In this document: piece by piece, positions 1,937 through 58,887 of the stretch | Numbering within the stretch: position 1 is the stretch's first letter | How the letters are laid out: every line of letters starts with the position of its first letter | Origin: Staphylococcus phage vB_SauM-UFV_DC4 | Length of the DNA: 64,000 nucleotides | Reading direction: 5' to 3' (one strand) | Sequence record: MZ779063.1 | Made by a program: the position numbers and the translations under genes | Notes under the pieces: model-generated | The model's database searches: none | Seen by the model: the letters and a program-made list of their open reading frames with translations, nothing else | What the model was told of the DNA's origin: nothing

Positions 1937-4672
1937 ATGAAGATTAAAAGATTAAAGTTAAAGAATTTTATCGGTATTTATGCTGGTATGGGATTAAAAG
2001 AAGTTGAAATTGATTTTAGTAAAAGTAAAAATAATATGATTATGCTTCTTGGAGATAACGCTTCAGGTAAGACGACAGTTATGTCTAATCTTAATCCATA
2101 TAGAGAAACTAATGATCAACGTAAAACTATAGTATTAGAAGATGAAAAAGGTATAAAAGAGATTGATTATATTAAGGGTAATGATGTTTATGAAATTAAA
2201 CATCATTATGGTAAAAACAGTTCTCAAAATAAATCATTCATTAAGAAAAATGGTGAAGAACTTAATGAAAATGGTGGTATTAAATTATTCAATGAAATAG
2301 TAGATAAAGAATTAGGTGTATCTAAAGAATACTTTACTGTAGGTCGTTTAGGTGATAACGTATCAAACTTCATTGACTATACTACAGGTGATCGTAAATC
2401 ATATATCAATAAATTTGTACCTAATATTGATAGATACTTAGAAGCTTATAAAGTAGCTAATGAGAAATTAAAAATTATTACTAAAGATTTAAAATCACTT
2501 AGATTTGATTTAGACAAATATAAAGAATTTGATGAAATCAAAAAAGAAAAAGAGAATTTAGAAACTTTAATTGATCAATTACAAAATGAACTTGATGAAG
2601 CTAATAAAGATAAAACAACTCATGAAACTAAAATGAATTCTATCATGGAAGATAAGTACAAAGAGATTCATCCAACTGAATATAAAAATCAATTAATTAA
2701 TGAAATTAATGAACTTAATCAAGAATTAGAAAAAGAAAGAAAGTTAAAAGAAGATAATGAGAATTTAAATAAATATACTATTGAATCCGCTAATGAGAAA
2801 AAAGATAAAATAGATACTATATTAAATAATACTAATAATGAGTTGACTTCTGTTGAGAAAGATAAAGAGAATAATCAAGATAAATTAGATGATTTAATCA
2901 GTAGAAAATCTAAAATAGAATCTCGTATGAATGCTATCAAATTTAATGAAGATTATGATGCTTCTGATGAAATTGATTCAATTCTTGAAGGATATAAAGA
3001 AGATTTAGAAGGTATTAAAGATGATGTAGATATTTCTAGAGGGTCTTTTGTAAGTGAATTCGGTTTACAAATTAAAGATAATATTAAAGAGGATTCATTA
3101 AGATTATATGTAAATGATTTAATTTCTAAGGTAGATAATTTTAAAGAATTTATTAATGATAATGAATTTAAATATGGTTCTATTCGTGGAGATTTTGAAA
3201 GTGAAATTAAAGATAATAATGAAAAAATTTCTATGAACCAGAATGAATTTAATGAAATTAATACTAAGCTTAATCAAATTAAAGGTAAATCAGACTTATT
3301 AAAAATATTAGATCAAAAAGATCATGAACACTATAATGAATGTGTATTTGTTCCTTTAGTAGCTGACTTTAAAGATAATGAATTTGATTCAATTTCTGAA
3401 TTAGAAAATAAAGGTAATCAACTTTATAAAGATAATCAAGAATTAGAAAAAGATAATAGATTATTATCTAATCATATTGATTTATTACGTAAATTTAATG
3501 ACATACTTAATAGCAGAAATGGTTTAATTGAATATATTGGTTTTGAAATGATTGATATTGATAGTATTGAAGAAATATTTACTAATGGTAATACATTCTC
3601 TAGTGAACTAAATAGACTTAATTCATTAATTGAAAAGACAAATGAAATTCGTACTAATGAAACTAATAGAGATAAATTGACTATTGAATTAGAGAGAAAA
3701 GAAAATGCTCTTAAAGAAGATTATTCTAATAAGAAAATATTAGATCAATATAAAGAAGATAAAGAAGATTTAGTTAAACAAATTGAAGAAATTAAAAATA
3801 AAAATAATGAAATTTCTGAGAATCTTAATTATCTTAATGGTCGTAAAGAAAAAGCAATTACTAACTTAAATATTATTAATGAATTTATTAATCTAACAGA
3901 GAGATCTGAAGAAATTAAATTAAAAATGAAAGATAAAAATGATATAGTTGATGACATTGATAAGGATCTTTCAAAATTAAGTAATTTATATGAACTTAAT
4001 CAAAAAGCAGACAATAAGATTCAATCTATTAAAGATAATTTAACTATGAAGAAAAATGATTTAGAATCTACTAAAGAAAAATACTTTGCAGTTAATTCTA
4101 TTATTACTAAGATTGATGAAATTGAATCAGTGTTATGGAAATATAATATGGTGGTAGACTCATTAAATCCTAAGAAAGACTCTATACCATTAATATTCAT
4201 TACTAATTATCTTAAAGATATTGCAGTAAGTACTAATGAATTACTTTCAGTTGCTTATAATAATTCATTTAAAATTGACTTTGACTTAACAGATAAAGAT
4301 TTCTTTATTAATGTGTATAAAGGTAATGGAACTGAACTTAAGGATATTAAAGAAGCTTCTCAAGGAGAAACAGCTTTAACTAATATTAGTTTATCATTAT
4401 CATTATTAAACAAAGTATCTCAAGATTATAATATTCTATACTTAGATGAAATGGATTCAACATTAGATTCTAATAATAGAAGAAGATTTGTTGATGTGAT
4501 TGACAGACAAATTGAATTAATGGGTCTAGAGCAAGTATTCTTAATTAGTCATAATGATGAATTTTATAGTGCTAATATTGACTTAATTTTACTTAAAGGA
4601 TATGAAAGTAAAATTGACATTAATAATGAAGAAATGATGCAAGGTAAAAATGTATTATTTAAAGTAAACTAA
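1937..4672 (+). CDS. SbcC/Rad50-like (T4 gp46-like) SMC-family recombination/repair ATPase
   Basis: N-terminal Walker A LLGDNASGKTT right after a KLKNFIGIY start typical of Rad50/SbcC. About 700 aa of coiled-coil-like K/E/N-rich sequence. C-terminal signature SQGETALTNISLSLSL, then Walker B/D-loop ILYLDEMDSTLD and FLISHN. Confidence 0.8.
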   Translation: MKIKRLKLKNFIGIYAGMGLKEVEIDFSKSKNNMIMLLGDNASGKTTVMSNLNPYRETNDQRKTIVLEDEKGIKEIDYIKGNDVYEIKHHYGKNSSQNKSFIKKNGEELNENGGIKLFNEIVDKELGVSKEYFTVGRLGDNVSNFIDYTTGDRKSYINKFVPNIDRYLEAYKVANEKLKIITKDLKSLRFDLDKYKEFDEIKKEKENLETLIDQLQNELDEANKDKTTHETKMNSIMEDKYKEIHPTEYKNQLINEINELNQELEKERKLKEDNENLNKYTIESANEKKDKIDTILNNTNNELTSVEKDKENNQDKLDDLISRKSKIESRMNAIKFNEDYDASDEIDSILEGYKEDLEGIKDDVDISRGSFVSEFGLQIKDNIKEDSLRLYVNDLISKVDNFKEFINDNEFKYGSIRGDFESEIKDNNEKISMNQNEFNEINTKLNQIKGKSDLLKILDQKDHEHYNECVFVPLVADFKDNEFDSISELENKGNQLYKDNQELEKDNRLLSNHIDLLRKFNDILNSRNGLIEYIGFEMIDIDSIEEIFTNGNTFSSELNRLNSLIEKTNEIRTNETNRDKLTIELERKENALKEDYSNKKILDQYKEDKEDLVKQIEEIKNKNNEISENLNYLNGRKEKAITNLNIINEFINLTERSEEIKLKMKDKNDIVDDIDKDLSKLSNLYELNQKADNKIQSIKDNLTMKKNDLESTKEKYFAVNSIITKIDEIESVLWKYNMVVDSLNPKKDSIPLIFITNYLKDIAVSTNELLSVAYNNSFKIDFDLTDKDFFINVYKGNGTELKDIKEASQGETALTNISLSLSLLNKVSQDYNILYLDEMDSTLDSNNRRRFVDVIDRQIELMGLEQVFLISHNDEFYSANIDLILLKGYESKIDINNEEMMQGKNVLFKVN

Positions 4673-5288: not shown

Positions 5289-7010
5289 ATGGGTAGATTT
5301 ATTAAATCAACATATTTAAATAAAAAAGAGACACATTCAGGAAAAGAAAAAGTAGTAATGGTAGTTAAAGAAGAAGACGGTAATAAAAAACATATGGAAA
5401 TAACTGATCCAATGATGCATTATTATGTAACTAAAGATGAACATTGGTTACCACCTAATAAAATTGTAGGTTCTATTGAAAAAGATAAAGTAAGAACTGT
5501 TACTTGTAAGCATAAAGATATTATCAAATCAGTAGTTAAAGAAGCTGGTAATGCTCAAGATAAAGCAGAATATGATAGAATTATGAAATCAGGTAATTGG
5601 CAAGAATATAGAAAATTAAAAGATTTTCATTTATTAAATAATGCTCATGGATCTGATATTAATATAGAAGATTATAATATTAATGAGTATATTAAAAAGA
5701 ATTTAGATAGTAAAGTCGGTATAGATATATGTCTATTCGATATTGAGGTTGATGGTTCTCAAGTAACAGGCTTCCCAGATCCTGAAAAAGCTGAAGCAGA
5801 GATAAATATTATAACTGTAGTGGATTGGAGTAAGAAAAAAGTATTAACATTCGCTCTTAAATATGACACTGATACTTATAGAGAAACTATGAAAGATCAA
5901 GATAAGTTAATTAAAGACTTAAATGAAATCTATAATAATGAAAATAGTGAAATTGGTAAAGATTTAGGTTTAGAATTTGAAATATATGAATTAGATACAG
6001 AAATGCAAGTAATTAAATCTTTCTTATACTATATTAATGAAATTAGTAAACCTGATATATGTACAGCATGGAATCTAGATTATGACTTCCCTGCAATATT
6101 TGAACGTATTAGAGCTAATGGAGAAGATCCTGCAGATTATTTCTGTTCTAAAGAATTTGAAGATAAAAAAGCATATTATAAATTAGATAAAAATGCTACT
6201 GATATGGCTAATAGATCTTCTACATTTGAGACTAATTCTTATACTAACTGGATTGACCAATTAGCTTTATATGCAAATATTAATAAACCTAATGGTGCTT
6301 TGGAATCAGTTAAGTTAAATGATATTGGAGAAAAAGAAGCGAGAGTTACTAAAGATGTTTATGAAGGTTCTATCTCTGATTTACATTTTAGAGATTATTA
6401 CACATTTATACTTTATAATATTAAAGATACTGTATTAGCTGCATTAATTGAACATAACACTAATATGTTTGATTTATTATTCTCTATTGTAGATATGACT
6501 AGAACAAGACCTAGTAAAGCACTTAAGAAAACTATTTGTTTAAGAAATCGTAGTTCAGTATTCTTTGAAAATCAAGGATATGTATTAAGTAATAACCACT
6601 CAAAATTATTATCAGATCCGAATGCAGATAAAATTCGTGGTGGATTTGTAGCAGATATGATGTTAATTGAACGTAATGGTGATACATTAGTTAAAGGTAG
6701 AGATATTAGATCTAATAGATTATTTAGTAATGTTTGTGACTTTGACTTGAGTGCTCTATACCCATCTATTATTAGAGCATATAATATAACACCTGAAGGA
6801 CATGTGGGTAAAATGAATATTCTTGATAAAGATAGAATAACAGTGCCTAAGTATGAGGAAGATAAAGATAACTATGATTTTAATACTGAATTCGTAAGTA
6901 AGTTTAACAGTCAAGATAGTGTTGCTTTTGCTCAAGAATTTCATGGTTTACCTCCTCTTATTAAAGCATCTGATGACATTATTAAAGAATTAGAGGAGGA
7001 AATTGGTTAA
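5289..7010 (+). CDS. Family B DNA polymerase, N-terminal part (3'-5' exonuclease domain through polymerase motif A); the ORF stops shortly after motif A
   Basis: Exo I LFDIEVDG, Exo II TAWNLDYDFPAIFER, Exo III YNIKDTVLAALIEH, polymerase motif A DFDLSALYPSIIRAYNITPEG; no motif B (KxxxNSxYG) or motif C (YGDTDS) before the stop. Confidence 0.8.
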   Translation: MGRFIKSTYLNKKETHSGKEKVVMVVKEEDGNKKHMEITDPMMHYYVTKDEHWLPPNKIVGSIEKDKVRTVTCKHKDIIKSVVKEAGNAQDKAEYDRIMKSGNWQEYRKLKDFHLLNNAHGSDINIEDYNINEYIKKNLDSKVGIDICLFDIEVDGSQVTGFPDPEKAEAEINIITVVDWSKKKVLTFALKYDTDTYRETMKDQDKLIKDLNEIYNNENSEIGKDLGLEFEIYELDTEMQVIKSFLYYINEISKPDICTAWNLDYDFPAIFERIRANGEDPADYFCSKEFEDKKAYYKLDKNATDMANRSSTFETNSYTNWIDQLALYANINKPNGALESVKLNDIGEKEARVTKDVYEGSISDLHFRDYYTFILYNIKDTVLAALIEHNTNMFDLLFSIVDMTRTRPSKALKKTICLRNRSSVFFENQGYVLSNNHSKLLSDPNADKIRGGFVADMMLIERNGDTLVKGRDIRSNRLFSNVCDFDLSALYPSIIRAYNITPEGHVGKMNILDKDRITVPKYEEDKDNYDFNTEFVSKFNSQDSVAFAQEFHGLPPLIKASDDIIKELEEEIG

Positions 7011-7835: not shown

Positions 7836-10298
7836 TTGAAAAGGAGTGTTTTGAATTTGGCTGATGAGAATAAAACTCAGAGAAGTATAAATAATCTCAA
7901 CAGAGATATGGTCAGAGGATTAGGCGATGAAGAAAATCCTAAGAACTTATCTGACAATATAAATGATTTTGATGATAGACTAAAAAAGATAAGACGTAAA
8001 AGTAATCATGGTAATAGTAATGGTGATATTCTATCTTTAGCATCTAAAGTAAACGGTAAAAGTAGAAATGTTAGAAAATCTAATACCGGTGATGATAAAA
8101 AAGATTTCATTAAAGATTTTATAGAAGAGAATATTGAAAATCAAGATTTTTCATCTGAAATTGCTAGAGTATCTAGATACGATGACTATAGAATTATAGA
8201 TAAATTTATACCTGAAATATCAACAAGTATTGATGTATTCGCTACTTCTATTATTGCACCTGATGATACTTCTAAATTATCATTGATGTATCGTTATGGT
8301 GATACAAATAATAAAGATGAATCAGAAAATAAAGAAGTTTTAAATGAATTAGATAGAATTGTAAAGAAATATAATTTGGACAATTTGACATATACTTCTA
8401 TTCGTGATGGTTTATTATTAGGTGATGTATTCTATATTATTAAAGATACTAAGTCTGATTTTGAAGAAATACTTAATGAAAATGATGACGTATTAGGAAG
8501 AGAAACACGAGATGAACAAAAAGTAATTAATGAATCATTTATTGACCAGAATCTTAAAGAATCTGATTTAGACACTATAATTAATGAATTTAATAATCAA
8601 TTTGAAAAGCCTATTAAAGATGAAGATCAATTAAATGAACAGAGAACTAATTTTAAAAATGAAATATTAAAGAGTATTAATGAGAATGTAGCTTTCTTTG
8701 AAAATTCTTCTGAATTACTCTCTGATATAGGTAAATACAAAGGTTCTAATGACTTACAATCATTTTTAAATAAAGCAGATAACAAAAATAAATCTAGTAA
8801 ATTAAAATCTGGTTCAGTTTATTTTAGATCCGTAGAACCCGAAGACATGATTAAATTAGAAATTGATGGTATGTGTATTGGTTATCTTTATATTGAACCT
8901 GATTCTGGAACTGATTTAAGAGGAGGAGCTAATCCTTTATTATCTGCTATGAATAATTTAATGGGAGATGGATACCAGAAGCAAGGTCAAACAGGATCAC
9001 CTTCAGGTGGTATGGGAATTACTAACTTAGATCCTGTTACTGGTGGCGTTGCAGGAAATAATATGTCTAGTAATTCTAAAAATCCTAATTCAGGAATGAA
9101 TGCTACATCTGGATCATATTATGAAAATGGAAATACTGTTATGGCATATCAAGGTTTAGTTGATGTTATAGTTAAAGGTATATCTCAAAAGATTAATATG
9201 GACTTCATTAATAAAAATGATTCATTTAAAGATATCATATATAGATTAATCCGTAAGAATTATATTATTGAAAATGGTATTAAAATGACTTTCTTAGAAG
9301 CTGATGAAGTGTTTCATCATAAATTAGACAGTCAAAAAACTTATGGAGTTTCTAAACTTAATAAATCATTATTCTTTGCTAAATTATATTTAAGTACTTT
9401 AATAACTACAATGATGGTTAAATTAAATCAATCAAGAGATAGACGTGTATTTAGAGTTAATGCAGGTTTAGATGATGATTATGAAGGAACTGTAGAAGAA
9501 ATAATTCGTAATGTGAGACAAAACGAAATGTCTACAGGATTATTTGGTGACGGAACTTCAGTTCAAACATTATTCAATCAAGTAGGTAACTTAGAAAACA
9601 TGTACATTCCTCAAAATAAAGAAGGTACTTCACCTTTAGAAATAGATACAATCTCTGGTATTCAAGTTGATATTAATGATGAGTTCTTAGAATGGCTTAA
9701 GAAATCAGTTATATCAGGTACAGGAGTTCCTTTAAACTATATTGATGCTGAAACTGAAACTGATTACGCACGTTCATTATCAATGCAGAATAATAACTTT
9801 GTCAGACGTGTAGTTAATTATCAAAAATCTTTCGGTGAATTTTATACTGAAGTATTAAGAAAACTTTATTATTTAGAAAATGTAAGTAAAAATAAAAAAG
9901 AAAATGAAGAATTAAGTAATAGAATACAAGAAATTGAAGCATACTTCCCAGCACCAGTATTCTTAAACTTAGGAAACCTTAATGAAGAAGTTGGAGCCGT
10001 TACGCAAATGATAGACTTCTTAGTTCCTTTATATACTTCAGAAGCTTCTGGTGACGAAGAAGAAGATGATAACGAAAAACTAAAACGTCTATTCCGTAAA
10101 GAATTAGTTCAACAAGAATTCATGTCTAATTTAGATTACGATAGATATGAAGATATTATTAACAATATTAAAGATGAAATAAATAAAGATAAAAGAAAAA
10201 ATGACATGGTAAATAATAATAATACTGATGAAGACGATTTATCTTCTTCAGATGACTCTGAAAATAATTCAAGCGATAATTTTGAGGATGATTTCTAA
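7836..10298 (+). CDS. Large hypothetical protein with a Gly/Ser/Asn-rich internal linker and a strongly acidic C-terminal tail; the true start is probably TTG at 7851 after AAGGAG
   Basis: Long ORF; low-complexity segment GGANPLLSAMNNLMGDGYQKQGQTGSPSGGMGITNLDPVTGGVAGNN; C-terminus DEDDLSSSDDSENNSSDNFEDDF. Confidence 0.5.
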   Translation: MKRSVLNLADENKTQRSINNLNRDMVRGLGDEENPKNLSDNINDFDDRLKKIRRKSNHGNSNGDILSLASKVNGKSRNVRKSNTGDDKKDFIKDFIEENIENQDFSSEIARVSRYDDYRIIDKFIPEISTSIDVFATSIIAPDDTSKLSLMYRYGDTNNKDESENKEVLNELDRIVKKYNLDNLTYTSIRDGLLLGDVFYIIKDTKSDFEEILNENDDVLGRETRDEQKVINESFIDQNLKESDLDTIINEFNNQFEKPIKDEDQLNEQRTNFKNEILKSINENVAFFENSSELLSDIGKYKGSNDLQSFLNKADNKNKSSKLKSGSVYFRSVEPEDMIKLEIDGMCIGYLYIEPDSGTDLRGGANPLLSAMNNLMGDGYQKQGQTGSPSGGMGITNLDPVTGGVAGNNMSSNSKNPNSGMNATSGSYYENGNTVMAYQGLVDVIVKGISQKINMDFINKNDSFKDIIYRLIRKNYIIENGIKMTFLEADEVFHHKLDSQKTYGVSKLNKSLFFAKLYLSTLITTMMVKLNQSRDRRVFRVNAGLDDDYEGTVEEIIRNVRQNEMSTGLFGDGTSVQTLFNQVGNLENMYIPQNKEGTSPLEIDTISGIQVDINDEFLEWLKKSVISGTGVPLNYIDAETETDYARSLSMQNNNFVRRVVNYQKSFGEFYTEVLRKLYYLENVSKNKKENEELSNRIQEIEAYFPAPVFLNLGNLNEEVGAVTQMIDFLVPLYTSEASGDEEEDDNEKLKRLFRKELVQQEFMSNLDYDRYEDIINNIKDEINKDKRKNDMVNNNNTDEDDLSSSDDSENNSSDNFEDDF

Positions 10299-10344
10299 TA
10301 TTGACATTTGAATAACGGATTAAATACAATTCGTTATTCAAATT

Positions 10345-10370
10345 TATATTATATAAGTGTAGTACAGAAT
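10345..10370 (+). promoter_or_regulatory. Promoter-like motif TATATTATATAAGTGTAGTAC upstream of the RNAP beta-prime fragment
   Basis: One of at least 8 copies of TATATTATA(N2-5)TG(A/T)(A/G) found 30-60 nt upstream of plus-strand starts. Confidence 0.45.
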
Positions 10371-10398: not shown

Positions 10399-12312
10399 AT
10401 GACAAATGAAGAAATTGTTTTAGATTTAAAATTAGGTAAGTATAATGATTATTTACACTCAGATAATTATTTTGAAATTTTAGAAGATTTAAAGAAAGAT
10501 ATTATTAGTAATCCTCAAAAAAGAATGGAAGACTATTTTGAAGACAATATATCTAAAAGTAATTATTTCACTTTATTAGTATTAGGTAAACCTTTTAGAG
10601 ATATGAATAAAGAGTTTACGGAAGAATACTTAGTTAATCCAACTGATATTGAAGATTATTATGATTATTTTGACAAAGTTGTTGTTAATTTTATTCATGA
10701 AGGACATGACCCAATAAAAGTTAGTCAATCTATTGCATTTATTATTGATGAATTAACTATATTTTCAAATGAATATATTTTACCTTTAGATGGACCATCT
10801 ATTTCATTATACGATATTATGAGATTGGCTAATGAAGATAAAGAAGTAGAAAAATTAATTAACTTTGATAAAGAAGATATTGACCCTAGCTTAAACTATC
10901 AGCAAATTATCAATGAAGTTCAAAAACCTAATATGCATAAATTAATTGATCGTATTAAATCTGATAAAGAAAATGATTATAAAACTTTCTTACATTCAGG
11001 AACAGGTATTAATAAGATACAATTGAATGAGGTTTTAAGTTTCGTAGGATACAAACCAGATATTCGTGGCGATGTTGTAACTGATATTATTGATACCTCA
11101 TTCATGCGTGGTTTAAAAGATACAACACAATTTGCTATTGATGCAGAATCTTCATTAAACGCATTAATGAACTCTAAGAATAAAGTACGTGAATCAGGAT
11201 ACTTAAACCGTAAAATTACTTTATTAACTTCAGATTTAAAATTATCAGAAAATGAAGATTGTGAAAGTAAACATTTTGTTTACGTTAATATGAATAGTCA
11301 AGATAAATTAGATAGATTTAATGATAGATTCTATTATGATGATACAGATCAAGAATTAAAATTAATTAATTCTAAAGAAGATAGTCATTTAATAGGACAG
11401 ATTGTTCCATTACGTTCTCCTATCACATGTGCTGAATCTAAAGGAAAAATATGCCAAACTTGTTACGGTAAACGTTTATATAACATTAATAGAAACTTAT
11501 CTGTAGGTATATTGGCTACATTAAGATTAACAGAACCTATGACTCAAAAATTATTATCAACAAAACACTTACAAGCAGTACAATTATCTGAATTCTCTTG
11601 GCCAGATATCTTTAAAGAACACTTTGAATTCTCTGGAGATAATATTGTTCCACGTAATGAAAAGACTAAAGTTATTATTGATGAAATGATTATTAATGAA
11701 GATTATGAATATGGAAGATATAAAGCTAACAGTTTTAAATTTAAAGTAGGTACTAAAACTCATACTGTTAAATCACCTGTAACTCTTAAAATACCAGATC
11801 AAAATATTGAGACTATGGATAAGTTTTATGATGAAGAAGAAAATGCATTTATATTCAGTATGAAAGACTTAAAAGAGAATTTCTTATTTAATATTAAAAT
11901 TAAAAATGAAGGTGTTGCTGACCCACTTCTTAAAATACGTTCTATATTAGAAAGTACTAAATACATTAGAAATGATTATGAAGAAAATAACTATCAAGCA
12001 ATGTTTAATGATGTAACAGATTTATTACTTAAATCAGGTACAGACGTTATGAGTGTTCATTTAGAAACTATTATTAGAAACATGGTATTCTTAAATGAAG
12101 ATTATAAAGAAAGAACTAAATATAGAGATCCTGAATTTGAACCTGATATTGAATTGAAAAATGTAGGTAGTGCTATTTTAAGTTCACCTTCGCCAGTACA
12201 ATCATTAATCTTTGAGAAGATTAAAGCACAATTAAGTACTGATGAAACTAATAACTTCTTCAGTAAAGATGGAGACTCAATGTTCGATCCGTTATTTGAT
12301 TTTGATATTTAA
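10399..12312 (+). CDS. Multisubunit RNA polymerase beta-prime subunit, C-terminal module (bridge helix to trigger loop and beyond), fragment 1
   Basis: Bridge-helix-like FMRGLKDTT...SGYLNRKITLLTSDL (compare bacterial [23 protein letters not shown]). Trigger-loop region RSPITCAESKGKICQTCYGKRL...NLSVGILATLRLTEPMTQKLLSTKHLQAV (compare RSPLTCE..GVCAKCYGRDLA.G...[25 protein letters not shown]). Confidence 0.75.
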   Translation: MTNEEIVLDLKLGKYNDYLHSDNYFEILEDLKKDIISNPQKRMEDYFEDNISKSNYFTLLVLGKPFRDMNKEFTEEYLVNPTDIEDYYDYFDKVVVNFIHEGHDPIKVSQSIAFIIDELTIFSNEYILPLDGPSISLYDIMRLANEDKEVEKLINFDKEDIDPSLNYQQIINEVQKPNMHKLIDRIKSDKENDYKTFLHSGTGINKIQLNEVLSFVGYKPDIRGDVVTDIIDTSFMRGLKDTTQFAIDAESSLNALMNSKNKVRESGYLNRKITLLTSDLKLSENEDCESKHFVYVNMNSQDKLDRFNDRFYYDDTDQELKLINSKEDSHLIGQIVPLRSPITCAESKGKICQTCYGKRLYNINRNLSVGILATLRLTEPMTQKLLSTKHLQAVQLSEFSWPDIFKEHFEFSGDNIVPRNEKTKVIIDEMIINEDYEYGRYKANSFKFKVGTKTHTVKSPVTLKIPDQNIETMDKFYDEEENAFIFSMKDLKENFLFNIKIKNEGVADPLLKIRSILESTKYIRNDYEENNYQAMFNDVTDLLLKSGTDVMSVHLETIIRNMVFLNEDYKERTKYRDPEFEPDIELKNVGSAILSSPSPVQSLIFEKIKAQLSTDETNNFFSKDGDSMFDPLFDFDI

Positions 12313-13208: not shown

Positions 13209-14756
13209 ATGGTAGTATTAAATGAAACAAGAAAAATAAAAGTATCTGTATATCCTACTCGTATATTAGTTGAAAATTACGAGTTAGGATTTTGTTCTGC
13301 AATAGAAAGTTATCTATCAGTATGGGATAAAATATATCATAAACATACTTATAAAGCTTTCAAATATGATGAAGAAAATAAAACTATATCTTTTCCAGCA
13401 GGTATTAATACTAAATTATTATTACAGTCATTAAAAAATCATGGAGAAATTGATTATCAAGATTTCAGAGCAGTTGAAAATTTATTCTTTAAACCTAAAC
13501 CAAATTATGATGTTAAAATGAATTTTAAACCTAGAGATCTTCTACAAAGAAAAGCTATAGAATTCTTAAATTCATTTAGTATATATGATCCATCAACACA
13601 AAAATTCCTTTCATTACAAACTGGTGAAGGTAAAACTTTCTGTGCTTTAAAATCAGTCATTGACAGAGAATTAGTACCTATGATTTTTGTTAATAACAAT
13701 AAACTTAAAGAGCAATGGGAAGAAAAAATAAAAGAGTACACTAATGTTGATAATGAAAAAATATATGTGATTCAAGGGAGATCAAGTATTAATAAACTAT
13801 TTAAAATGAAATCTAAAGAAAGAAATAAAATAGATTTCTATATAGTAATGTATAAAACGTTAAATTCTTTTATTCAAGAAGATGAAGAAAGATTACAAGA
13901 ATTACTATTAAAAACTAAAGTAGGTATTAAGATATTTGATGAAGCACATTTAGATTTTCGAAGCTTAACTAATATTGATATACAAACAGATTTACCGTCA
14001 ATATACTTATCAGCTACACCTAGAAGATCTGATAAATCAGAAAATATGGTATTTAGTAATATATTCTTAAAAACACCTATATTTAGTTCTGATAATTACG
14101 ACAGACAGATAGCTAATAATAGAAAAATACCATCTAAATATCATGATGTATTTATTATCAGATGGAATAGTAATCCTAAAGAAGTTGAATTAGCTGATTT
14201 CATGAAAGCTTCTAAACGTAATGGTCTTAATGTAAATCATTATAGTAAATACTTAATTGAAGAAGATAAAAGAAGAAAAGAATACTTTGATATTGTATTT
14301 AATATTATTAATAATGTCATTATGAAAGAAGAAGTTAAAAAGACTGTAGTTATGTTTAAATTAAAGAATATGATAGATGATTTTTATTCATATTTAGAAG
14401 ATAAACTTGGACCTGAAGGATTAGAATTTTTAAATTGTATTAGATACTATGATGGTATTGATAAAGAAGAAAAAGATAAAGTATTAGAATCTAACTTAAT
14501 TATTACAACTGATTTATCTCTAGGTACTGGAATAGATATACCTGATTTAAAAGCTGTAATTAATACAGTTCCTTTATCAAGTGAAAGTAAAGTAACTCAA
14601 ATTATGGGTAGATTAAGATATATTGAAAATGAAAAATTAATGTTCTTTGATCTAATTGATCATGGATTTAAGAAATTAGTTTCTCAAGGAAGTAATAGAT
14701 TAAGAAATGTATATAAGAAGAAAGCTTTAAATATAACTGATTTTAAAATTAAATAA
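13209..14756 (+). CDS. Superfamily 2 (DEAH-box-like) helicase
   Basis: Motif I LQTGEGKT, motif II KIFDEAHLD, motif V/VI-like TTDLSLGTGIDIP and QIMGRLRY. Confidence 0.7.
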   Translation: MVVLNETRKIKVSVYPTRILVENYELGFCSAIESYLSVWDKIYHKHTYKAFKYDEENKTISFPAGINTKLLLQSLKNHGEIDYQDFRAVENLFFKPKPNYDVKMNFKPRDLLQRKAIEFLNSFSIYDPSTQKFLSLQTGEGKTFCALKSVIDRELVPMIFVNNNKLKEQWEEKIKEYTNVDNEKIYVIQGRSSINKLFKMKSKERNKIDFYIVMYKTLNSFIQEDEERLQELLLKTKVGIKIFDEAHLDFRSLTNIDIQTDLPSIYLSATPRRSDKSENMVFSNIFLKTPIFSSDNYDRQIANNRKIPSKYHDVFIIRWNSNPKEVELADFMKASKRNGLNVNHYSKYLIEEDKRRKEYFDIVFNIINNVIMKEEVKKTVVMFKLKNMIDDFYSYLEDKLGPEGLEFLNCIRYYDGIDKEEKDKVLESNLIITTDLSLGTGIDIPDLKAVINTVPLSSESKVTQIMGRLRYIENEKLMFFDLIDHGFKKLVSQGSNRLRNVYKKKALNITDFKIK

Positions 14757-21360: not shown

Positions 21361-22158
21361 TTAACTAAATGTTCCCCATGCGTTACCAATACGTTGTCCT
21401 TTACCATTTGATTTACCAATTGGCACGTATACATATTGTCCCTTAAATTTACCTGAAACCCAGATAAGACCATCAAAGTCTTGGATTTCTTCGTATTTAA
21501 TAGAGTCGCCTTTTTTCATGAATGGACCTGTAGGCCATCCAGTCCATGGACCATTTTTACGAGTAATAATTCCTGAAGCAACATTACATTTGAAAGTAGC
21601 TTTTTCAGTTTTCCATAGAATACCTGCTGAATTACGTTTCCATTTAGCAGATGTAACAGCTTTCTTAGGAGCTGCTTTCTTAACTACTTTTTTCTTAGGA
21701 GCTGCTTTCTTAGTAGTTGCTTTTTTAGTAGCTGTACTACTAAAGGCTGGACGAATTACTCCCCAAAATCCTGTATAATCATGGAATACTTTAGCTGCAG
21801 GTGAACCATTGCTACCTGCGTTAAACCAGTTTTGGTCAACTGAATAGAAATTGTTTAAGTTAGCTGAAGTAATAATACCTGTATGACCATAAACATCATA
21901 TGGAGGATTAGCCCAAATAGCTATATCTCCTGGTTGAGGTAAGAATGATGGAGTATTTTTAATAAGTTTCCATCCTGAAGGCATTGTATTATCTTTAAGA
22001 TCTTTAGCATTACCCCAAGGCCAGAATTTTCCATCAGTTAAATAGTGACAATAACCAATAGTCAAATCCATACATTGAGCACCATAAGCTCCATCCATGT
22101 CAAGTCTACGACCAATACGATTATTAACCCAATTCAAAGCTTGAGTTTTAGTTTTCAT
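21361..22158 (-). CDS. Peptidoglycan hydrolase: CHAP-domain endopeptidase/amidase with a C-terminal SH3b (SH3_5) cell-wall-binding domain
   Basis: CHAP catalytic Cys in YGAQCMDL and His in YGHTGII. Lys/Ala/Thr-rich linker. C-terminal SH3b WKRNSAGILWKTEKATFKC...GKFKGQYVYVPIGKSNGKGQRIGNAWGTFS is nearly identical to the C-terminus of ORF 22324..23274. Confidence 0.8.
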   Translation of the reverse strand: MKTKTQALNWVNNRIGRRLDMDGAYGAQCMDLTIGYCHYLTDGKFWPWGNAKDLKDNTMPSGWKLIKNTPSFLPQPGDIAIWANPPYDVYGHTGIITSANLNNFYSVDQNWFNAGSNGSPAAKVFHDYTGFWGVIRPAFSSTATKKATTKKAAPKKKVVKKAAPKKAVTSAKWKRNSAGILWKTEKATFKCNVASGIITRKNGPWTGWPTGPFMKKGDSIKYEEIQDFDGLIWVSGKFKGQYVYVPIGKSNGKGQRIGNAWGTFS

Positions 22159-22323: not shown

Positions 22324-23274
22324 TTAGCTAAATGTTCCCCATGCTGGACCAATACGTTTACCGTTACCATTTGATTTACCCACTGGTACGTATACATATT
22401 GTCCCTTAAATTTACCTGAAACCCAAATATATCCGTTAAAATCTTGGATTTCATCATATTTAATAGTGTCACCTTTAGACATACGAGGACCTTGAGGCCA
22501 TCCAGTCCATGGACCATTTTTACGAGTAATAATTCCTACAGATACACCACATTTGAAAGTAGCTTTTTCAGTTTTCCATAGAATACCTGCTGAATTACGT
22601 TTCCAAGTAGTTGAAGTTTCAGTACTTGTTTTCTTAGGTTTAGCAGGTGCTTTAGTTGTAGTAGTAGATTTAGTCGCTGTTGAAGTTTTAGCTGTAGAAG
22701 TAGCACCATTTTTCATATAAGCTAGAACCTTTTTATCTACATTAGAAACACTACGAGACATACCGCATGCAGCTAATAAGTTACCTGGATCTTGTTTGTC
22801 TGCTTGAATATCTTGATGACCTGGCATATTTGTACTTGCATTAACTTTATATTCTTTACATAAGAAAGCAAGAATACGACAATAGTTATCAAATGATTTT
22901 AATGAACGACTTCTATTAGAGAAGTAACATCCTTCAACACCAATAGCACCGTCATTAGCATCAATACCATACCAAGCATTATCAGTTGGTGTATTATACA
23001 TAACATGCCATGCTTTTTCATCTAAAGGAACACAAATAATACATTCTTTATCATCAACAAAAATATGAGCTGATGCTGTATAGTTCCAATCGATATTATA
23101 TGAATTACGATAGTAATCAACATTATTTTGAGCTGTTGTGTTAGGGTTTCCTGTGTCATGAGCAACAATAAATTTAGGTCCGTTAAGCTTATCTCCAGCT
23201 CTACGAGTACCTATTGGTAAAAAATCAGTATAAACAGGAACACCGTTCCATGTACCGATATGTTTTTTAGCCAT
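22324..23274 (-). CDS. Peptidoglycan hydrolase: N-acetylmuramoyl-L-alanine amidase (amidase_2/PGRP fold) with a C-terminal SH3b domain
   Basis: FIVAHDTGNP...AHIFVDDKECIICVP...W matches the amidase_2 zinc-site layout; C-terminal SH3b shared with the CHAP lysin; AGGAGG RBS. Confidence 0.8.
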   Translation of the reverse strand: MAKKHIGTWNGVPVYTDFLPIGTRRAGDKLNGPKFIVAHDTGNPNTTAQNNVDYYRNSYNIDWNYTASAHIFVDDKECIICVPLDEKAWHVMYNTPTDNAWYGIDANDGAIGVEGCYFSNRSRSLKSFDNYCRILAFLCKEYKVNASTNMPGHQDIQADKQDPGNLLAACGMSRSVSNVDKKVLAYMKNGATSTAKTSTATKSTTTTKAPAKPKKTSTETSTTWKRNSAGILWKTEKATFKCGVSVGIITRKNGPWTGWPQGPRMSKGDTIKYDEIQDFNGYIWVSGKFKGQYVYVPVGKSNGNGKRIGPAWGTFS

Positions 23275-29220: not shown

Positions 29221-29730
29221 TTAAAGACCAAATTCTTTATCTAAAGATTCTTCTAAAGAACTAATATCTTCATTAGTTTGTTCTTCTTCTTTAACAGCTT
29301 CAAATAAGCTAAATAAAGCTTCTTCAACAGGACTTACAACTGAATCAATTTTATTTTCCATAGCTTCATTTAATTTAGTAGGTAATTTTTTGAATAGAGC
29401 GATGTATTTCTTTTCATTATTTCTAGCCCAGGCTTCTGCTTTTTTAGGACTTTGGAAAGCACATACTCGAATAAAACGATTTAAAATAGATGTTTTACCT
29501 TTAGCATCAATTACTCTGTAAGTAAATATAACTGTTCCATCTTCATGAGCATCTAAAGCAAATTCATTTTCATCAAATTTTTTACCTTTAGCGATAACTT
29601 TAGCTTTCTTTTTAGTAGCACGTGCTATGAATTTTTCCTCTGTATCTTTATCAGAAGGGTTTACCATTTTTCTTAATGTATCCTTCACATTAGCTTCATT
29701 TAATAATGTTTCTTGTAAAAAATCTTCCAT
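29221..29730 (-). CDS. Hypothetical protein, paralog of ORF 29772..30332 (C-terminus ends in SLEESLDKEFGL)
   Basis: Shared blocks AEAWARNNEKKYIALFKKLPTK and KEAQKWVQSNGNKFVSIFKKAPDK. Confidence 0.55.
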   Translation of the reverse strand: MEDFLQETLLNEANVKDTLRKMVNPSDKDTEEKFIARATKKKAKVIAKGKKFDENEFALDAHEDGTVIFTYRVIDAKGKTSILNRFIRVCAFQSPKKAEAWARNNEKKYIALFKKLPTKLNEAMENKIDSVVSPVEEALFSLFEAVKEEEQTNEDISSLEESLDKEFGL

Positions 29731-29771: not shown

Positions 29772-30332
29772 TTAGTTTAATTTAAATTCCTCATCTAATA
29801 TTTTTTCTAAATTTTCAATAACTTTATCATCTTCATCAATTTCAGGTTTCTTATCAGGAGCTTTCTTGAAGATAGATACAAATTTATTTCCATTACTTTG
29901 AACCCATTTTTGTGCTTCTTTGAAACGATCTGCAACTATTCCAATAGGTATTCTTCGAATTTTATCTTTACCTTTATATTTAACAGGTACTTCTAAAGCA
30001 GCGTTTTTACCACCAGTACGTTTGGCCACTACTACAATATTGCTTGAATCAATTCTAATACCATTACTTTTAGCTTTTATTTTAAAATTCATACAAGCTT
30101 TAGCAAAATCCGCTTCAAGCGTATCAGGTTCAACAATTCCTTCTTGAACTGCAATATCCGAAGTATTACCGCAATCTTCACATACTAATTGACCTGATTC
30201 ATTTGGAGACATTTTAGAACCACATTCTTCACAAATAGGCTCTTCTTTATCAGTATCAATATCACGATTTAATTCTTCATTAACTAAACCAAATTCTTTA
30301 TCTAAAGATTCTTCTAAAGATTTAAAATCCAT
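29772..30332 (-). CDS. Zinc-ribbon protein, paralog of ORF 29221..29730 (N-terminus begins MDFKSLEESLDKEFGL)
   Basis: CEECGSKMSPNESGQLVCEDCGN has the same C-x2-C-x13-C-x2-C pattern as the 641-aa acidic protein. Confidence 0.55.
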   Translation of the reverse strand: MDFKSLEESLDKEFGLVNEELNRDIDTDKEEPICEECGSKMSPNESGQLVCEDCGNTSDIAVQEGIVEPDTLEADFAKACMNFKIKAKSNGIRIDSSNIVVVAKRTGGKNAALEVPVKYKGKDKIRRIPIGIVADRFKEAQKWVQSNGNKFVSIFKKAPDKKPEIDEDDKVIENLEKILDEEFKLN

Positions 30333-30428: not shown

Positions 30429-33400
30429 TTATAGCATATCTTTTACTTTACGTTTTAATTCTATTAAAGCTTTATTAGTTGCCAACATTAAATAAATATC
30501 AGTAGTCATACGAGATACGATACTTAATGGAGAGAATATAGCTTCGATTTCTTCGTCAGGTCTATATTCTGCATAAGGAGATTCATTAGGAGGAGTAACA
30601 TCAGCAATAACTGTTTTACATGCTCCATAGAAACTAATCTTATCACCGATACTCATATCATCTTCATATTCTGTGAAAATTTCAATAAGTACTCCATCCA
30701 CTTTTTCACCTTTAATTTTCTCACTATTAATTTTCTCTACAGCTGGAATATCTACATCTAAACCAGGTAATGTAGATTTATTATCTTTAACTGCATTTTT
30801 GTATTCTCTATATTTACTCTTAGATTTATTAATATAACCATTAACTAATTTAGCTAATGTAGGAGACATATTTTCAATATCATCATTATAATAGATATTT
30901 ACTTTTTTAATTTCTCCAGTATATTTAGATCTAACAGCTCTATTAGAAATATCTTGTATTTCTTGTTCAAATTCAGAACCGATTTTATCTAATAAAGAAC
31001 CAATACCTTCATCATCAAATGAATTCTCAAATATCATTAATGGATCTCCTGTACGTACATTTTGACCTTCCTTAACAATATATTGAATATTTGTATTAGA
31101 AGCTAAATTAACTGTTTTCTTCATAGTAACTTTAGTTGACATTGCTTCAGACATACTGTTAGAAATAATAGAACTATCTTCGTACGTGCCATAGCTTGAA
31201 GCAACTGCAACTTTAGATAATTTACCAGCAGCAAATTGAATATCATTATTACTGCCAGATCCTGCAAAGTAACTATCATTTTTAGCCAATACTTGTCCTT
31301 TATTAAATTTCTTACCTACTTCAAATTGTGGGGTAAGTTTATTATTTTGATAGAAACCGCCATTAGAGTTTTTAGCAAGTTTTTCAGATATATCAATTAC
31401 ATCTTTATCCCCATTAATGTATTCAACAAGCATTAATCCTGTTTTCTCATTGATAGAAGTTACTTTCCCATCTTCTTTAGCTTTAAATGCAAAAGTATCT
31501 GAAATTTGATACGCTAAAGATTTATCTACACCAGATCCAACTAATGGACGATCATTTGTTTTAGTAGCGATTAAATGCTTAGCCTGAGTTCCTGTCATTC
31601 CTATACGAGGTGAATCTGCATGTCTACTAGTATATGGGTTTAATAATTCTAATGGAGTGTATAAAGCTGTATCACTTACATCTTTCTTACTACCATCAGT
31701 ATATCCACGAGTAGATTTAATCTGTGTATCATATGAAAGTTGTCTAACTATACCTACCTTATTACTGTCAGGTGTGCTTATTCCTAATATACCTTGCATA
31801 CTTTCGTCATAAGAACGAATATCAGGTTCATATGATTGTTCAGAGTTACGTCCAGCAGGACCTTTAAACGTAACAGAAGTCATCTTATCTATTTCTAAGT
31901 TAGGGTTTAAATCAGATACTTCATCTACTGTAGGTTGTTCCATAATAGTTTTAATTAATTGATCTTGTTTAACTGAAATATTCTTAGGATTTTTATTATT
32001 ATAAGAATCTGAATACTCTTTATAAGCATTTGCCATCATTTTATACAATAATGCGTTAATTTGCTCTGGTCCACGTACACGATAAATTCCCATATCATTA
32101 TGATCTCTAGCTGAAACGTCTTCTAACATTGTATTAGCTAATAGTAATAATTCAACCATATTATCAGGAAGTTTTAAATCTCTTAATACTTCTTTAGTAA
32201 TAGGATCCATTGCTAAATCCATAGTATTTTTAATACCTTTACCAACATTACGACTGTAGAATTTATCATTGAAATATTCTAAGTAAGGTGTTTCAGTTTC
32301 AAAATCACTGAAATTGTATTGTGAAGTAGGTAATACAGTTAATCCAGACATTAATAAATCAAATCTTAATTTATCAGTAGAGTATATTAAATAACCGTCT
32401 TGGAATTTAATCTTATTCTTTTTATCATGAATGCTAATTCTTTCATTCTCAGTAGTAAATTTATAATCAACTTCATAAAGATCAAGAATATTAGTTAAAC
32501 CTTTATAGAAACCTAATAATAGAATTGTAGGTACTAATTTATTAGTAATTTTAACACGTGAAAATGCCATCGTCTTATTAGATTGAATATTCTTACTGAA
32601 TTTCTTATCAACGACTCCAAAGTCAACTTCATTGTCTAGTTTATCAATAATGTAATCAAATATATTTACTTCCATAGATTTAATATTAGATTTACTACAT
32701 TCATACATAACAGATTCTGTTTTGTCTGCTAATATTAATTTAGATTTATTAATATTATAACCAATAGGGAAATATTTATCTTGATCATAATCAATCTTAG
32801 ATAAACTAGCGCTATCGGAAATCATTCCTAATAAACTTCTTTGGTTGAATTCAAGTACATTAGTACCATCTTGGAAATTTAATATATTTCTAGATAAACT
32901 ATTATAAATAACTGAAGTTACGTATTTATTATTAATTAAAGAAGCATTACCTTTTTTAACAGATAGGTTAGATTTATTTTCAATATAATCTATAACTTGG
33001 TCATCTTCAATAACTTTCTTAATCCATTCAGTTTCAGCATTTTCTTTATAACCGAATTTTTCTATAATGAATTTATTATAGTTAGTTGTAATCCAAACAG
33101 TATCAGGTTTATATTTAACGATTGGCCACATCATTAACTGTTTAGTTAATACTTTTTTACCGCCATTAAGTTTCATATATTTACCGTCAATAACTTTAGG
33201 AACATCAAATTTAACATTATGAGTTAAACCATCTGGACTTCTAAATTGGACTTTAACTGTATTTTTTAATGACTGACTATCTGAATTATCTTCAATATTC
33301 ATTTTATTAATAAATACTGGAATATCTTCATTGTCATTAAAGCTTTTCATTATATCAATAAAGTCTTTATTAAATGTTTTTTGCATATAAGAAATATCAA

Positions 33401-34935: not shown

Positions 34936-35142
34936 ATTATTATAATATTTTATTATAATATAATTATAATATTCCGGACACTTTCAAATTTTTTATCACA
35001 TAATGGTACAAATTTATAATTTTTTAAATAATTAATATAAAAATATTTATTAACTTCATGCATATTGTTTAATTATATAAAAATTATAAAATACTCAGTA
35101 ACATCTAAATATCAATAAAATAATGAAAGAAGTGAAAATAAA

Positions 35143-40880: not shown

Positions 40881-40896
40881 TTATACATAGTTTTAA

Positions 40897-42914: not shown

Positions 42915-42920
42915 ATAATA

Positions 42921-42960
42921 ACCCTAACCTTAAATTAATAAGGTTAGGGTATTTTATATT
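42921..42960. terminator. Bidirectional hairpin ACCCTAACCTT-AAATTAATA-AGGTTAGGGT with flanking T-run; CCCTAACC family
   Basis: Between convergent genes 40962..42914(+) and 42968..43651(-). Confidence 0.6.
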
Positions 42961-42967
42961 ATTTTTT

Positions 42968-43651: not shown

Positions 43652-43750
43652 AGATTTAATACCTTCTTTCTAATTTTCTTTTATCTATATTAGTATAATT
43701 AAATGTTATGAATATTTTTTAGTCTTTATGCGTTTCATGTAAATTTTTAA

Positions 43751-43775
43751 ATATATATTATAAAAGTGAAGTACT
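43751..43775 (+). promoter_or_regulatory. Promoter-like motif ATATATATTATAAAAGTGAAGTAC
   Basis: TATATTATA family copy upstream of ORF 43826. Confidence 0.4.
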
Positions 43776-43825
43776 AATTAGCTAATAGTATTTCATAAAA
43801 ATTACACTAGGAGAGTGAATCGGAT

Positions 43826-55722: not shown

Positions 55723-55730
55723 TTTATTAA

Positions 55731-58781: not shown

Positions 58782-58887
58782 TGTTATAATATATAATTAT
58801 ATATTAATTCGTAATTTTATAAAAATTGATATTACCTAGTAACATTCACTTATAATAATAAGTATCGGGAAGTCGGTGAATTAAAAA

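Follow-up and report, generated by a model that had tools for sequence, protein, structure and literature searches.

Two diverged RNA polymerase beta' fragments encoded by Staphylococcus phage vB_SauM-UFV_DC4 point to one non-virion and one virion enzyme

Why would the genome of Staphylococcus phage vB_SauM-UFV_DC4 (DC4) carry two separate genes for the catalytic-site region of the RNA polymerase (RNAP) beta' subunit? Both genes, hereafter ORF1 and ORF2, lie in the stretch of 64,000 nucleotides of record MZ779063.1 that was analyzed in this work (the window), and they were found at exactly the coordinates given in the original prediction that drew attention to them (Table 1). The published DC4 genome coordinate equals the window coordinate plus 32000, as established by comparing at least 10 genes, and the ORF2 protein is 100% identical to its DC4 entry. 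Cellular RpoC is a single polypeptide with an N-terminal catalytic NADFDGD/DPBB half, whereas ORF1 and ORF2 are stand-alone genes devoid of such a half, aligning only to beta' positions from ~570 onward. The use of two polymerases is a textbook strategy of AR9- and phiKZ-like jumbo phages. Our analysis comprised homology, orthology, gene intactness, fold, fragment boundary and promoter-like motifs, and we consider it very probable that DC4, like AR9, encodes two split multisubunit RNAPs, with ORF1 contributing to the non-virion enzyme and ORF2 to the virion enzyme.

Table 1. RNAP genes, protein motifs and promoter-like elements in the DC4 window
Feature	Nucleotide position	Strand	Residues	Description
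ORF1 (UFVDC4_00049)	10399..12312	+	637 aa	ATG start; predicted non-virion RNAP beta' C-terminal subunit
ORF1 bridge helix GYL	11197-11205	+	267-269	ESGYLNRKI
ORF1 Zn-Cys motif	11257-11262 and 11413-11469	+	C288/C344/C352/C355	
ORF1 RSPITC			339-344	
ORF1 CQTCYG			352-357	
ORF1 TKH	11560-11568	+	388-390	Trigger-loop His
ORF2 (UFVDC4_00068)	35143..36369	+	408 aa	TTG start; predicted virion RNAP middle beta' fragment
ORF2 bridge helix GYQ	35953-35961	+	270-277	GGYQAKQL
ORF2 Zn-Cys motif	36016-36021 and 36175-36225	+		
ORF2 RSPMYC			345-350	
ORF2 CSKCAG			356-361	
ORF2 SFH	36310-36318	+	390-392	His of first trigger-loop helix
UFVDC4_00067	30429..34682	-	1417 aa	Predicted virion RNAP beta-like large fragment; putative AR9 gp189 ortholog
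UFVDC4_00088	55799..57532	+		Predicted non-virion RNAP fifth subunit, promoter-specificity factor; AR9 gp226 homolog
Inverted repeat, 11 bp	10307-10317 / 10332-10342			After portal gene, directly before ORF1 early motif
Early-promoter-like motif AAATTTATATTAT-N6-G	10340..10359	+		AR9-type (virion RNAP); 40 nt before ORF1 ATG
Late-promoter-like motif AACATCTAAATA (AACA-N6-TA)	35100..35111	+		AR9-type (non-virion RNAP); 43 nt before ORF2 start
Exact early-promoter motif (zero mismatches)	55729-55748			Before the gp226-like gene

A PDB search with the ORF1 protein retrieved AR9 gp154 (7s00_D) across aa 45-632 (E=4.6e-82), and phiKZ gp74 (7ogp_D) with E=1.8e-16. The Pfam domain RNA_pol_Rpb1_5 was recognized at aa 245-564 with 38.9 bits, above its curated cut-off of 28.5, and phrog_3015 was the reciprocal best PHROG match (E=1e-67). 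In reciprocal tblastn searches ORF1 paired only with AR9 gp154, displaying no cross-match to gp264, and gp154 used as query matched only ORF1 within the window. The dN/dS value relative to phage SA1 was 0.099. ORF1 is an intact RNAP beta' homolog under purifying selection, and by sequence it is assigned as the ortholog of AR9 gp154 and phiKZ gp74, the non-virion RNAP beta' C-terminal subunits. The bridge helix, the Zn-Cys4 site, the trigger loop with its His and the beta' C-terminal region are held together in this one polypeptide, the remainder of the beta' C-terminus following the trigger-loop His in the same protein. Its four zinc-site cysteines carry nearly the same numbering as those of phiKZ gp74 (C288, C341, C350 and C353; PMC8287921).

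AR9 gp154, represented by chain D of PDB entries 7S00, 7S01, 7UM0 and 7UM1, likewise displays a bridge helix, a Zn-Cys4 motif and a trigger loop, and in both phages a helicase gene is found shortly downstream. Nevertheless, the two proteins are only 33% identical, their phages infect distinct hosts (Staphylococcus for DC4, Bacillus for AR9), and the upstream neighbors differ, being the portal gene for ORF1, and a small virion protein gene, with DNA polymerase on the opposite strand, for AR9 g154. ORF1 had been described as part of a replication block, which agrees with the helicase downstream but not with the portal gene immediately upstream. As a side observation, the ORF1 product is missing from a short list of DC4 virion proteins identified by LC-MS, which is too shallow to be informative on this point (PMC10638138).

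ORF2 is 46% identical over its whole length to AR9 g264 (tblastn, E=2e-107), which is annotated as 'virion RNAP subunit'; reciprocally, AR9 gp264 matched only ORF2 in the window, with no cross-match to ORF1, and phrog_2962 was the reciprocal best PHROG match (E=1.5e-75). Pfam gave no RNAP match for ORF2, only a sub-threshold hit to Baculo_p48, and single-sequence phmmer against the PDB was weak, with a best E value of 1.7e-4. A family profile built from 35 homolog sequences aligned to bacterial beta' at positions ~572-941 (E=5e-17), ending at MRTFH, which contains the trigger-loop His. Further, an AF2 model of ORF2 (pLDDT 83.5) was compared by Foldseek, and the top match was 7s00_D (E=8e-13, probability 1.00), along with many bacterial beta' chains (TMq 0.59-0.66); according to this model, ORF2 folds as a beta' module comprising the funnel, the bridge helix and the trigger helix, as the original prediction had supposed. 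The assignment of ORF2 is made on the profile, the fold and orthology, the single-sequence searches being weak.

The ORF2 protein falls 229 aa short of ORF1 in length, its C-terminus lying 16 residues past the trigger-loop His; together with the missing Pfam RNAP domain, this could be read as the signature of a decaying duplicate, i.e., a beta' C-terminal module truncated after the first trigger-loop helix. However, AR9 gp264 has an equal length, stops at the same point and shares the C-terminal sequence FHDMTxK..DI..YIE; more than 100 homologs of ORF2 were identified, all of ~400 aa; its dN/dS was 0.066; residues C293, C350, C356 and C359, as well as those of the catalytic site, are invariant in the 35 homologs; and virion RNAPs are known to have a separate C-terminal beta' subunit (PMC7598289; PMC5694885). 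With length conserved and selection purifying, decay of either copy is effectively refuted and retains practically no probability, and neither ORF is a pseudogene (rounded dN/dS of 0.10 for ORF1 and 0.07 for ORF2). ORF2 is, rather, the middle fragment of a three-piece virion beta', ending within the trigger loop, and by sequence comparison the ortholog of AR9 gp264. The virion beta' has been described as split into three pieces (PMC7598289), and, in relation to RpoC, ORF2 lacks everything beyond the first trigger-loop helix. By published subunit schemes and size, SPN3US gp42 (beta'M) and phiKZ gp80 are likely its counterparts. No homolog of AR9 gp125, the virion C-beta', was detected within the window. 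Consequently, the description of the two proteins as beta' C-terminal modules is accurate for ORF1 and has to be amended for ORF2.

Direct comparison of ORF1 and ORF2 revealed only 24% identity over 126 aa (E=3e-6), and the statement that their divergence is too great for a recent duplication therefore stands. Both proteins align to bacterial and cyanobacterial RpoC, to RpoC2 and to plastid beta'' over the segment that comprises the funnel, the bridge helix and the trigger loop, and both begin near the split point between cyanobacterial RpoC1 and RpoC2; aa 183-398 of ORF1 align to residues 117-348 of 8gzg_Z, and positions 197-389 of the ORF2-family profile align to residues 130-344 of the same chain. 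The cysteine and trigger-loop motifs attributed to both proteins are present in both, and each has an additional upstream DC, which results in a four-Cys zinc motif; with the database matches, the resemblance of both ORFs to beta' far exceeds what chance would give. The bridge-helix GYL segment was confirmed in ORF1, whereas ORF2 reads GYQ at this place, and the spacing of the cysteine motif, given as RSP-x-C, is actually RSP-x-x-C in both proteins. The sole GY[LM] sequence of ORF2 is a GYM at aa 88-90, away from the bridge helix.

Two further RNAP genes were identified in the window. The large beta-like fragment matched phrog_14872 (E=1e-196) and displayed 44.6% identity by tblastn to AR9 149167-154537, the intron-containing g189; its C-terminal 70 aa align weakly to plastid and bacterial RNAP beta. 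This gene is uninterrupted in DC4, in contrast to MarsHill and PALS_2, where it harbors an intron. It is transcribed divergently from ORF2 across a 460-bp spacer, whereas AR9 gp189 is not located next to gp264. A Hef-like homing endonuclease gene is found immediately downstream of both ORF2 and AR9 g264, with three such genes in tandem in DC4 and one in AR9. The remaining gene encodes a homolog of AR9 gp226 (PDB 7s01_A, E=3.2e-40, aa 115-554; phrog_25005, E=1.5e-53). PHROG scans of 36 ORFs recovered only these four RNAP subunits; the scanned set did not include some 13 others that are 100 aa or longer and lie mostly past position 46000. The small genes 29772..30332 and 29221..29730, downstream of the beta gene, were considered as RNAP parts or as a sigma factor and rejected, given that they had no significant Pfam or PHROG match; their homologs are found in Staphylococcus jumbo phages only, and the 'Sigma70 factor' reported for UFVDC4_00065 was not reproduced.

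The original prediction read the two beta' genes as evidence of one virion and one non-virion RNAP set, and comparison with AR9 and phiKZ bore this out, ORF1 leading to AR9 gp154 and phiKZ gp74, and ORF2 to AR9 gp264, in one-to-one orthology with the AR9 subunits. AR9 gp154 co-purifies with gp226 in a five-subunit non-virion RNAP (PMC5449584), while gp078, gp125, gp145, gp189 and gp264 are listed as virion RNAP subunits and late genes (PMC5312081). The DC4 paralogs have also been discussed in terms of a single RNAP core, with the two beta' modules acting as alternative subunits exchanged at different stages (PMC10638138). We regard this as very unlikely: the AR9 non-virion enzyme purifies as five defined subunits, among them gp154 but not gp264 (PMC5449584), SPN3US takes its five virion subunits into the head only when the set is complete (PMC5694885), the fragment boundaries of ORF1 and ORF2 differ, and each is matched by cognate beta fragments of its own, with nine RNAP genes listed for DC4 (PMC10638138).

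AR9-type promoter-like motifs were sought upstream of the genes. The element preceding ORF1 differs from the AR9 early consensus, AAATATATATTAT-N6-G (PMC5312081), by a single mismatch, and in AR9 an early promoter is annotated at the corresponding place before g154; the AR9 non-virion RNAP genes carry early promoters (PMC5312081). In the window TATATTAT-N6-G occurs eight times, seven of them preceding a gene start on the same strand by 52-72 nt, a placement matched by none of 2000 shuffles. Plain TATATTAT counts were uninformative (30 against 34.5 expected in the window, at 25% GC), the promoter signal coming only from the extended motif and its position relative to gene starts. No early motif with one mismatch or fewer was found upstream of ORF2, which is preceded by a late-type element. 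Within the 100 nt preceding genes, AACA-N6-TA occurred 11 times in the sense orientation (4.8 expected, a count reached in 16 of 2000 shuffles) and three times in antisense; window-wide, the low-information motif AACA-N6-TR displayed no enrichment (89 against 122 expected). The single site before ORF2 is a weak late-promoter candidate. ORF2 had been placed at a divergent promoter opposite the beta gene; on the ORF2 side the spacer has this late-type motif, whereas for the beta gene it contains no exact AR9-type early or late motif, only one-mismatch variants.

The location of ORF1 directly after the portal gene, which encodes a virion component, and the fact that neither beta' piece appears in the DC4 virion LC-MS list (PMC10638138) could suggest the reversed assignment, with ORF1 packaged and ORF2 not. 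Against it stand the one-to-one orthology with the AR9 subunits, the early-promoter motif shared by ORF1, AR9 g154 and the gp226-like gene, and the detection in DC4 virions, by one peptide, of the beta fragment UFVDC4_00067, the neighbor of ORF2 (PMC10638138). With these, we consider the reversal extremely unlikely. In SPN3US, the beta'M subunit was found in virions (PMC5694885).

With ORF1 assigned to the non-virion enzyme and ORF2 to the virion enzyme, we infer the composition of the complexes, their packaging and their timing from AR9, phiKZ and SPN3US. The ORF1 product would combine with N-beta', N-beta and C-beta, whose genes are not in the window, and with the gp226-like subunit to give the non-virion RNAP, which would carry out late-gene transcription. 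Because of the early-promoter motif upstream, ORF1 itself is probably a target of the virion enzyme that is injected. The virion RNAP would be formed by the ORF2 product, the adjacent beta fragment and three more subunits whose genes lie elsewhere; ORF2 would supply the bridge helix, with the funnel region and the zinc site, but of the trigger loop only the first helix. This enzyme would be synthesized late, taken up into the head and delivered by injection, after which it would transcribe the early genes. Alpha and omega subunits have not been reported for such phages (PMC7598289).

The existence of two RNAPs in this group is already known, since the DC4 genome has been published (PMC10638138) and records of sister phages carry the virion and non-virion labels. 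Orthologs of both ORFs with 98-99.8% protein identity are present in the Staphylococcus jumbo phages S6, PALS_2, MarsHill and Madawaska (GenBank records; Korn et al., bioRxiv 10.1101/2020.12.14.422802), and the aligning parts of window positions 9000-33000 are ~96% identical at the nucleotide level to PALS_2 and S6. In the GenBank records of MarsHill and Madawaska, the ORF1 ortholog is named 'non-viral' and the ORF2 ortholog 'viral' RNA polymerase beta-prime subunit. The PALS_2 and DC4 annotations label ORF1 as 'delta subunit', with 'beta subunit' also among their labels (PMC10638138); the delta designation is unsupported, every match of ORF1 being to beta-prime. The practical value of our results is therefore one of annotation hygiene, with little significance as a discovery: the ORF1 label should become non-virion beta' C-terminal subunit, and that of ORF2 virion beta' middle fragment.

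The conserved position at which the virion beta' is interrupted, inside the trigger loop, may bear on the mechanism of the enzyme. When AR9 gp125 was examined for a second trigger-loop arm, no significant similarity to the C-terminal half of ORF1 or to any PDB chain was detected; virion RNAP chains were absent from the PDB matches of ORF2, of its family profile and of its model, and our literature search found no solved virion RNAP structure. Because no second arm was detected and no such structure was found, the injected virion RNAP might work with half a trigger loop, or assemble the trigger loop in trans, although we hold this to be improbable; perhaps a split trigger loop would let the enzyme come apart so that it can pass through the tail. 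If true, a trigger loop that is halved or completed in trans would constitute a mechanistic novelty for multisubunit RNAPs, and it would apply to the phage group as a whole rather than to this window.

Both ORFs under study, the beta' homologs assigned to the non-virion RNA polymerase (nvRNAP; ORF1) and to the virion RNA polymerase (vRNAP; ORF2), lie in a strongly AT-rich window (GC content 20-31%) exactly where the original prediction had placed them. The GYL bridge-helix segment it described is present in ORF1, but the bridge helix of ORF2 has GYQ; the RSP, cysteine and trigger-loop motifs occur in both, with the spacing RSP-x-x-C and not RSP-x-C. The two proteins share only 24% identity across 126 aa (E=3e-6), and are therefore old paralogs with no recent duplication, as had been proposed. 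Neither ORF is decayed, and the possibility of a pseudogene is excluded by the dN/dS values against the phage SA1 orthologs (0.099 for ORF1 and 0.066 for ORF2).

Features in the window, with DC4 gene-table entries (PMC10638138) where matched
Feature	Position	Strand	DC4 entry	Details
ORF1	10399..12312	+	UFVDC4_00049, 42399..44312	637 aa, ATG start; ESGYLNRKI (GYL aa 267-269), DC 287-288, RSPITC 339-344, CQTCYG 352-357, TKH 388-390
ORF2	35143..36369	+	UFVDC4_00068, 67143..68369	408 aa, TTG start, ribosome-binding site GAAAGAAGTG upstream; GGYQAKQL aa 270-277, DC 292-293, RSPMYC 345-350, CSKCAG 356-361, SFH 390-392
Virion beta fragment gene	30429..34682	-	UFVDC4_00067, 62429..66682	1417 aa, divergent from ORF2; ortholog of AR9 g189
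gp226 homolog, nvRNAP promoter-specificity subunit	55799..57532	+	UFVDC4_00088, 87799..89532	7s01_A, E=3.2e-40
Early motif AAATTTATATTAT-ATAAGT-G	10340-10359	+		40 nt before ORF1 ATG
Late-type motif AACATCTAAATA	35100-35111	+		43 nt upstream of ORF2 start
Hef-like genes	36508..38601, 38912..40363, 40962..42914	+		phrog_559/681/3339; weak DUF559, treble-clef matches
Early-promoter motifs, one per Hef-like gene	36435-36454, 38855-38874, 40895-40914	+		
Gene near ORF1, SbcC-like ATPase	1937..4672	+		
ORF1 neighbour, split family-B DNA polymerase piece	5289..7010	+		
ORF1 neighbour directly upstream, portal protein	7836..10298	+		
ORF1 neighbour, SF2 helicase	13209..14756	+		
Cell-wall hydrolase genes (CHAP-type endolysin, amidase)	21361..22158, 22324..23274	-		
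'Sigma70 factor' gene	29221..29730	-	UFVDC4_00065	
186-aa ORF	29772..30332	-		beside UFVDC4_00065
GroEL-like chaperonin	53037..54779	+		phrog_5725, E=5e-95

In local tblastn searches of the window with proteins of the Bacillus jumbo phage AR9, gp154 matched ORF1 alone (E=1.7e-85) and gp264 matched ORF2 alone (E=1.3e-120), with no cross-matches at E<=1e-3; judged by sequence similarity, orthology is one-to-one. The proposed alignment to AR9 and phiKZ beta' proteins pairs ORF1 with gp154 and gp74, and ORF2 with gp264. The central claim of two RNAP sets is borne out by these intact, diverged paralogs, each the ortholog of a component of a different AR9 polymerase.

ORF1 is the non-virion RNAP beta' C-terminal subunit. 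It exceeds the Pfam RNA_pol_Rpb1_5 cut-off and matches phrog_3015 (E=1e-67). Its residues 45-632 align with the D chain in the crystal structure of AR9 nvRNAP (7s00_D, E=4.6e-82), and it aligns with phiKZ gp74 as well (7ogp_D, E=1.8e-16). Its tblastn target, AR9 g154, carries the annotation 'non-virion RNAP subunit, beta' C-terminus', and gp154 was purified from infected cells together with gp089, gp105, gp270 and gp226 as a five-subunit nvRNAP (PMC5449584). Cysteines 288, 344, 352 and 355 of ORF1 have almost the same residue numbers as the Zn site of phiKZ gp74 (C288, C341, C350, C353), whose bridge helix (L242-Y279) spans the GYL position of ORF1 (PMC8287921). Bridge helix, Zn site, C-terminus and an entire trigger-loop region are all present on ORF1. 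Its supposed location in a replication block was not sustained, as the surrounding genes are of mixed types, including a portal protein; in AR9, these genes are arranged differently and on the opposite strand.

As a single sequence, ORF2 had no RNAP match in Pfam and a weak best PDB match (E=1.7e-4); it matched phrog_2962 (E=1.5e-75), and from end to end it shares 46% identity with AR9 g264, whose annotation reads 'virion RNAP subunit'. A profile of its 35-member family aligned with bacterial beta' (E=5e-17; positions 59-387 to 8i23_D residues 572-941), ending at the MRTFH motif in the first trigger-loop helix. In the AlphaFold2 model (mean pLDDT 83.5), the bridge helix is 36 residues long (aa 246-281), and the last helix (aa 372-392) gives way to a disordered tail. 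The beta' fold expected of ORF2 was recovered by Foldseek, which matched the model to AR9 gp154 (7s00_D, E=8e-13) and to bacterial beta' chains (query-normalised TM-score 0.59-0.66). Neither outcome that the original prediction named as refuting it, a pseudogene or a failure to fold as beta', was thus observed. ORF2 and AR9 gp264 have the C-terminal sequence FHDMT(I/L)K..DI..YIE in common, and more than 100 ORF2 homologs are ~400 aa long; therefore, its short length is native. It comprises the funnel, bridge helix, Zn site and first trigger-loop helix only. Virion beta' is built from three polypeptides, N, M and C, the last being a small SPN3US gp244-type protein (PMC7598289; PMC5694885), and ORF2 fits this scheme as the M piece. 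The description of both ORFs as beta' C-terminal modules consequently holds for ORF1 but not for ORF2, which ends after the first trigger-loop helix. No homolog of AR9 gp125, the C piece, was found within the window.

The divergent beta gene is the ortholog of AR9 g189, a late gene for the virion beta fragment (PMC5312081) that contains an intron; its product was the only RNAP subunit detected in DC4 virions by LC-MS, with one peptide (PMC10638138). PHROG scans covered 36 window ORFs, with ~13 more of >=100 aa lying outside this set, chiefly past position 46000, and revealed no RNAP pieces beyond ORF1, ORF2, the beta gene and the gp226-like gene, and the DC4 gene table places the remaining subunits outside the window (PMC10638138). 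ORF2 and the beta gene are both uninterrupted here, whereas insertions or introns break up the orthologs in sister phages: tblastn recovers the beta gene in 2-5 pieces from PALS_2, MarsHill, LY01, Machias, AH12 and PB50, and the beta'M gene in 2 pieces from LY01, Machias and AH12; PB50 has two annotated CDS for beta'M. A study centred on gp178, a phiKZ vRNAP subunit (PMC8287921), describes a PhiPA3 intron-encoded endonuclease that mediates competition between co-infecting phages (PMC11620839). Directly 3' of ORF2 is a tandem array of three paralogous homing-endonuclease genes, Hef-like and rich in Zn fingers, whereas AR9 has one after g264 and MarsHill one at the locus. UFVDC4_00065, named 'Sigma70 factor' (PMC10638138), had no Pfam or PHROG match, with homologs found only in Staphylococcus jumbo phages; the sole match of the adjacent 186-aa ORF was a sub-threshold TFIIB-type Zn-ribbon. 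The GroEL-like chaperonin was detected in DC4 virions with 5 LC-MS peptides, its packaging requiring confirmation according to the authors (PMC10638138).

In AR9, AAATATATATTAT-N6-G is the consensus of the early promoters, which the virion RNAP recognizes and which are found on nvRNAP genes; vRNAP genes are late, and late promoters, used by the non-virion RNAP, have AACA-N6-T(A/G) (PMC5312081). By analogy, motif matches in the window are regarded as putative promoters. The early motif of ORF1 is directly preceded by an 11-bp inverted repeat 3' of the portal gene, and further early-motif matches (0, 1 or 2 mismatches) are located upstream of the gp226-like gene, the three homing-endonuclease genes and two more genes. 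TATATTAT-N6-G occurs 8 times in the window; 7 of these sites lie 52-72 nt before a start codon on their own strand, a number reached by none of 2000 shuffles. All good early motifs end in RTG. A one-mismatch motif, AATTATATATTATAACAATG at 58779..58798 (-), has its predicted +1 G at the G of the ATG of ORF 57621..58781 (-); the match is fortuitous, or else transcription from it could not be used for this ORF. No early motif with <=1 mismatch precedes ORF2; its single late-type motif weakly suggests, by likeness to AR9, a late promoter, the class being moderately over-represented before genes (11 sites vs an expected 4.8, a count reached in 16 of 2000 shuffles). In the 460-bp spacer between the diverging ORF2 and beta genes, for which a divergent promoter had been proposed, ORF2 has its late-type motif, but no exact early or late motif is present for the beta gene. 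A late-type motif, AACA-N6-TA, also lies 54-60 nt before each of the two neighbouring cell-wall hydrolase genes.

For at least 10 genes, positions in the DC4 gene table equal those in the window plus 32000 (PMC10638138), and a database entry named for vB_SauM-UFV_DC4 matches the ORF2 protein with 100% identity. The closest phage-collection records, PALS_2 and S6, share ~96% nucleotide identity over the aligning parts of window 9000-33000, and, like DC4, are AR9/PBS1-like jumbo phages. Since these genes were published as RNAP beta/beta' subunits (PMC10638138), the orthologs of ORF1 and ORF2 in the MarsHill and Madawaska GenBank records are already labelled 'non-viral' and 'viral' RNA polymerase beta-prime subunit, and Korn et al. 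(bioRxiv 10.1101/2020.12.14.422802) described five subunits each for the virion and the non-virion enzyme, beta'-mid among them, the two-RNAP finding correctly re-identifies a feature that was already known. What is added is limited to the explicit assignment of the DC4 genes, the correction of the 'delta' and 'beta' labels, and the conserved trigger-loop break.

By analogy with AR9, phiKZ and SPN3US, the virion RNAP would be made late, by assembly of the ORF2 product with the 1417-aa beta fragment and three more subunits, then packaged and injected. It would transcribe the early-motif genes, ORF1 and the gp226-like gene among them; in turn, the ORF1 product and four partners would form the non-virion enzyme transcribing late genes, including ORF2. 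The break in the virion beta' falls within the trigger loop, and its position is conserved between AR9 and DC4. Our literature search yielded no solved virion RNAP structure, the PDB matches of ORF2, its family profile and its model included no virion chain, and a second trigger-loop arm was not located by sequence in AR9 gp125; the way in which the injected enzyme completes its trigger loop is a matter for the whole phage group rather than this window specifically.
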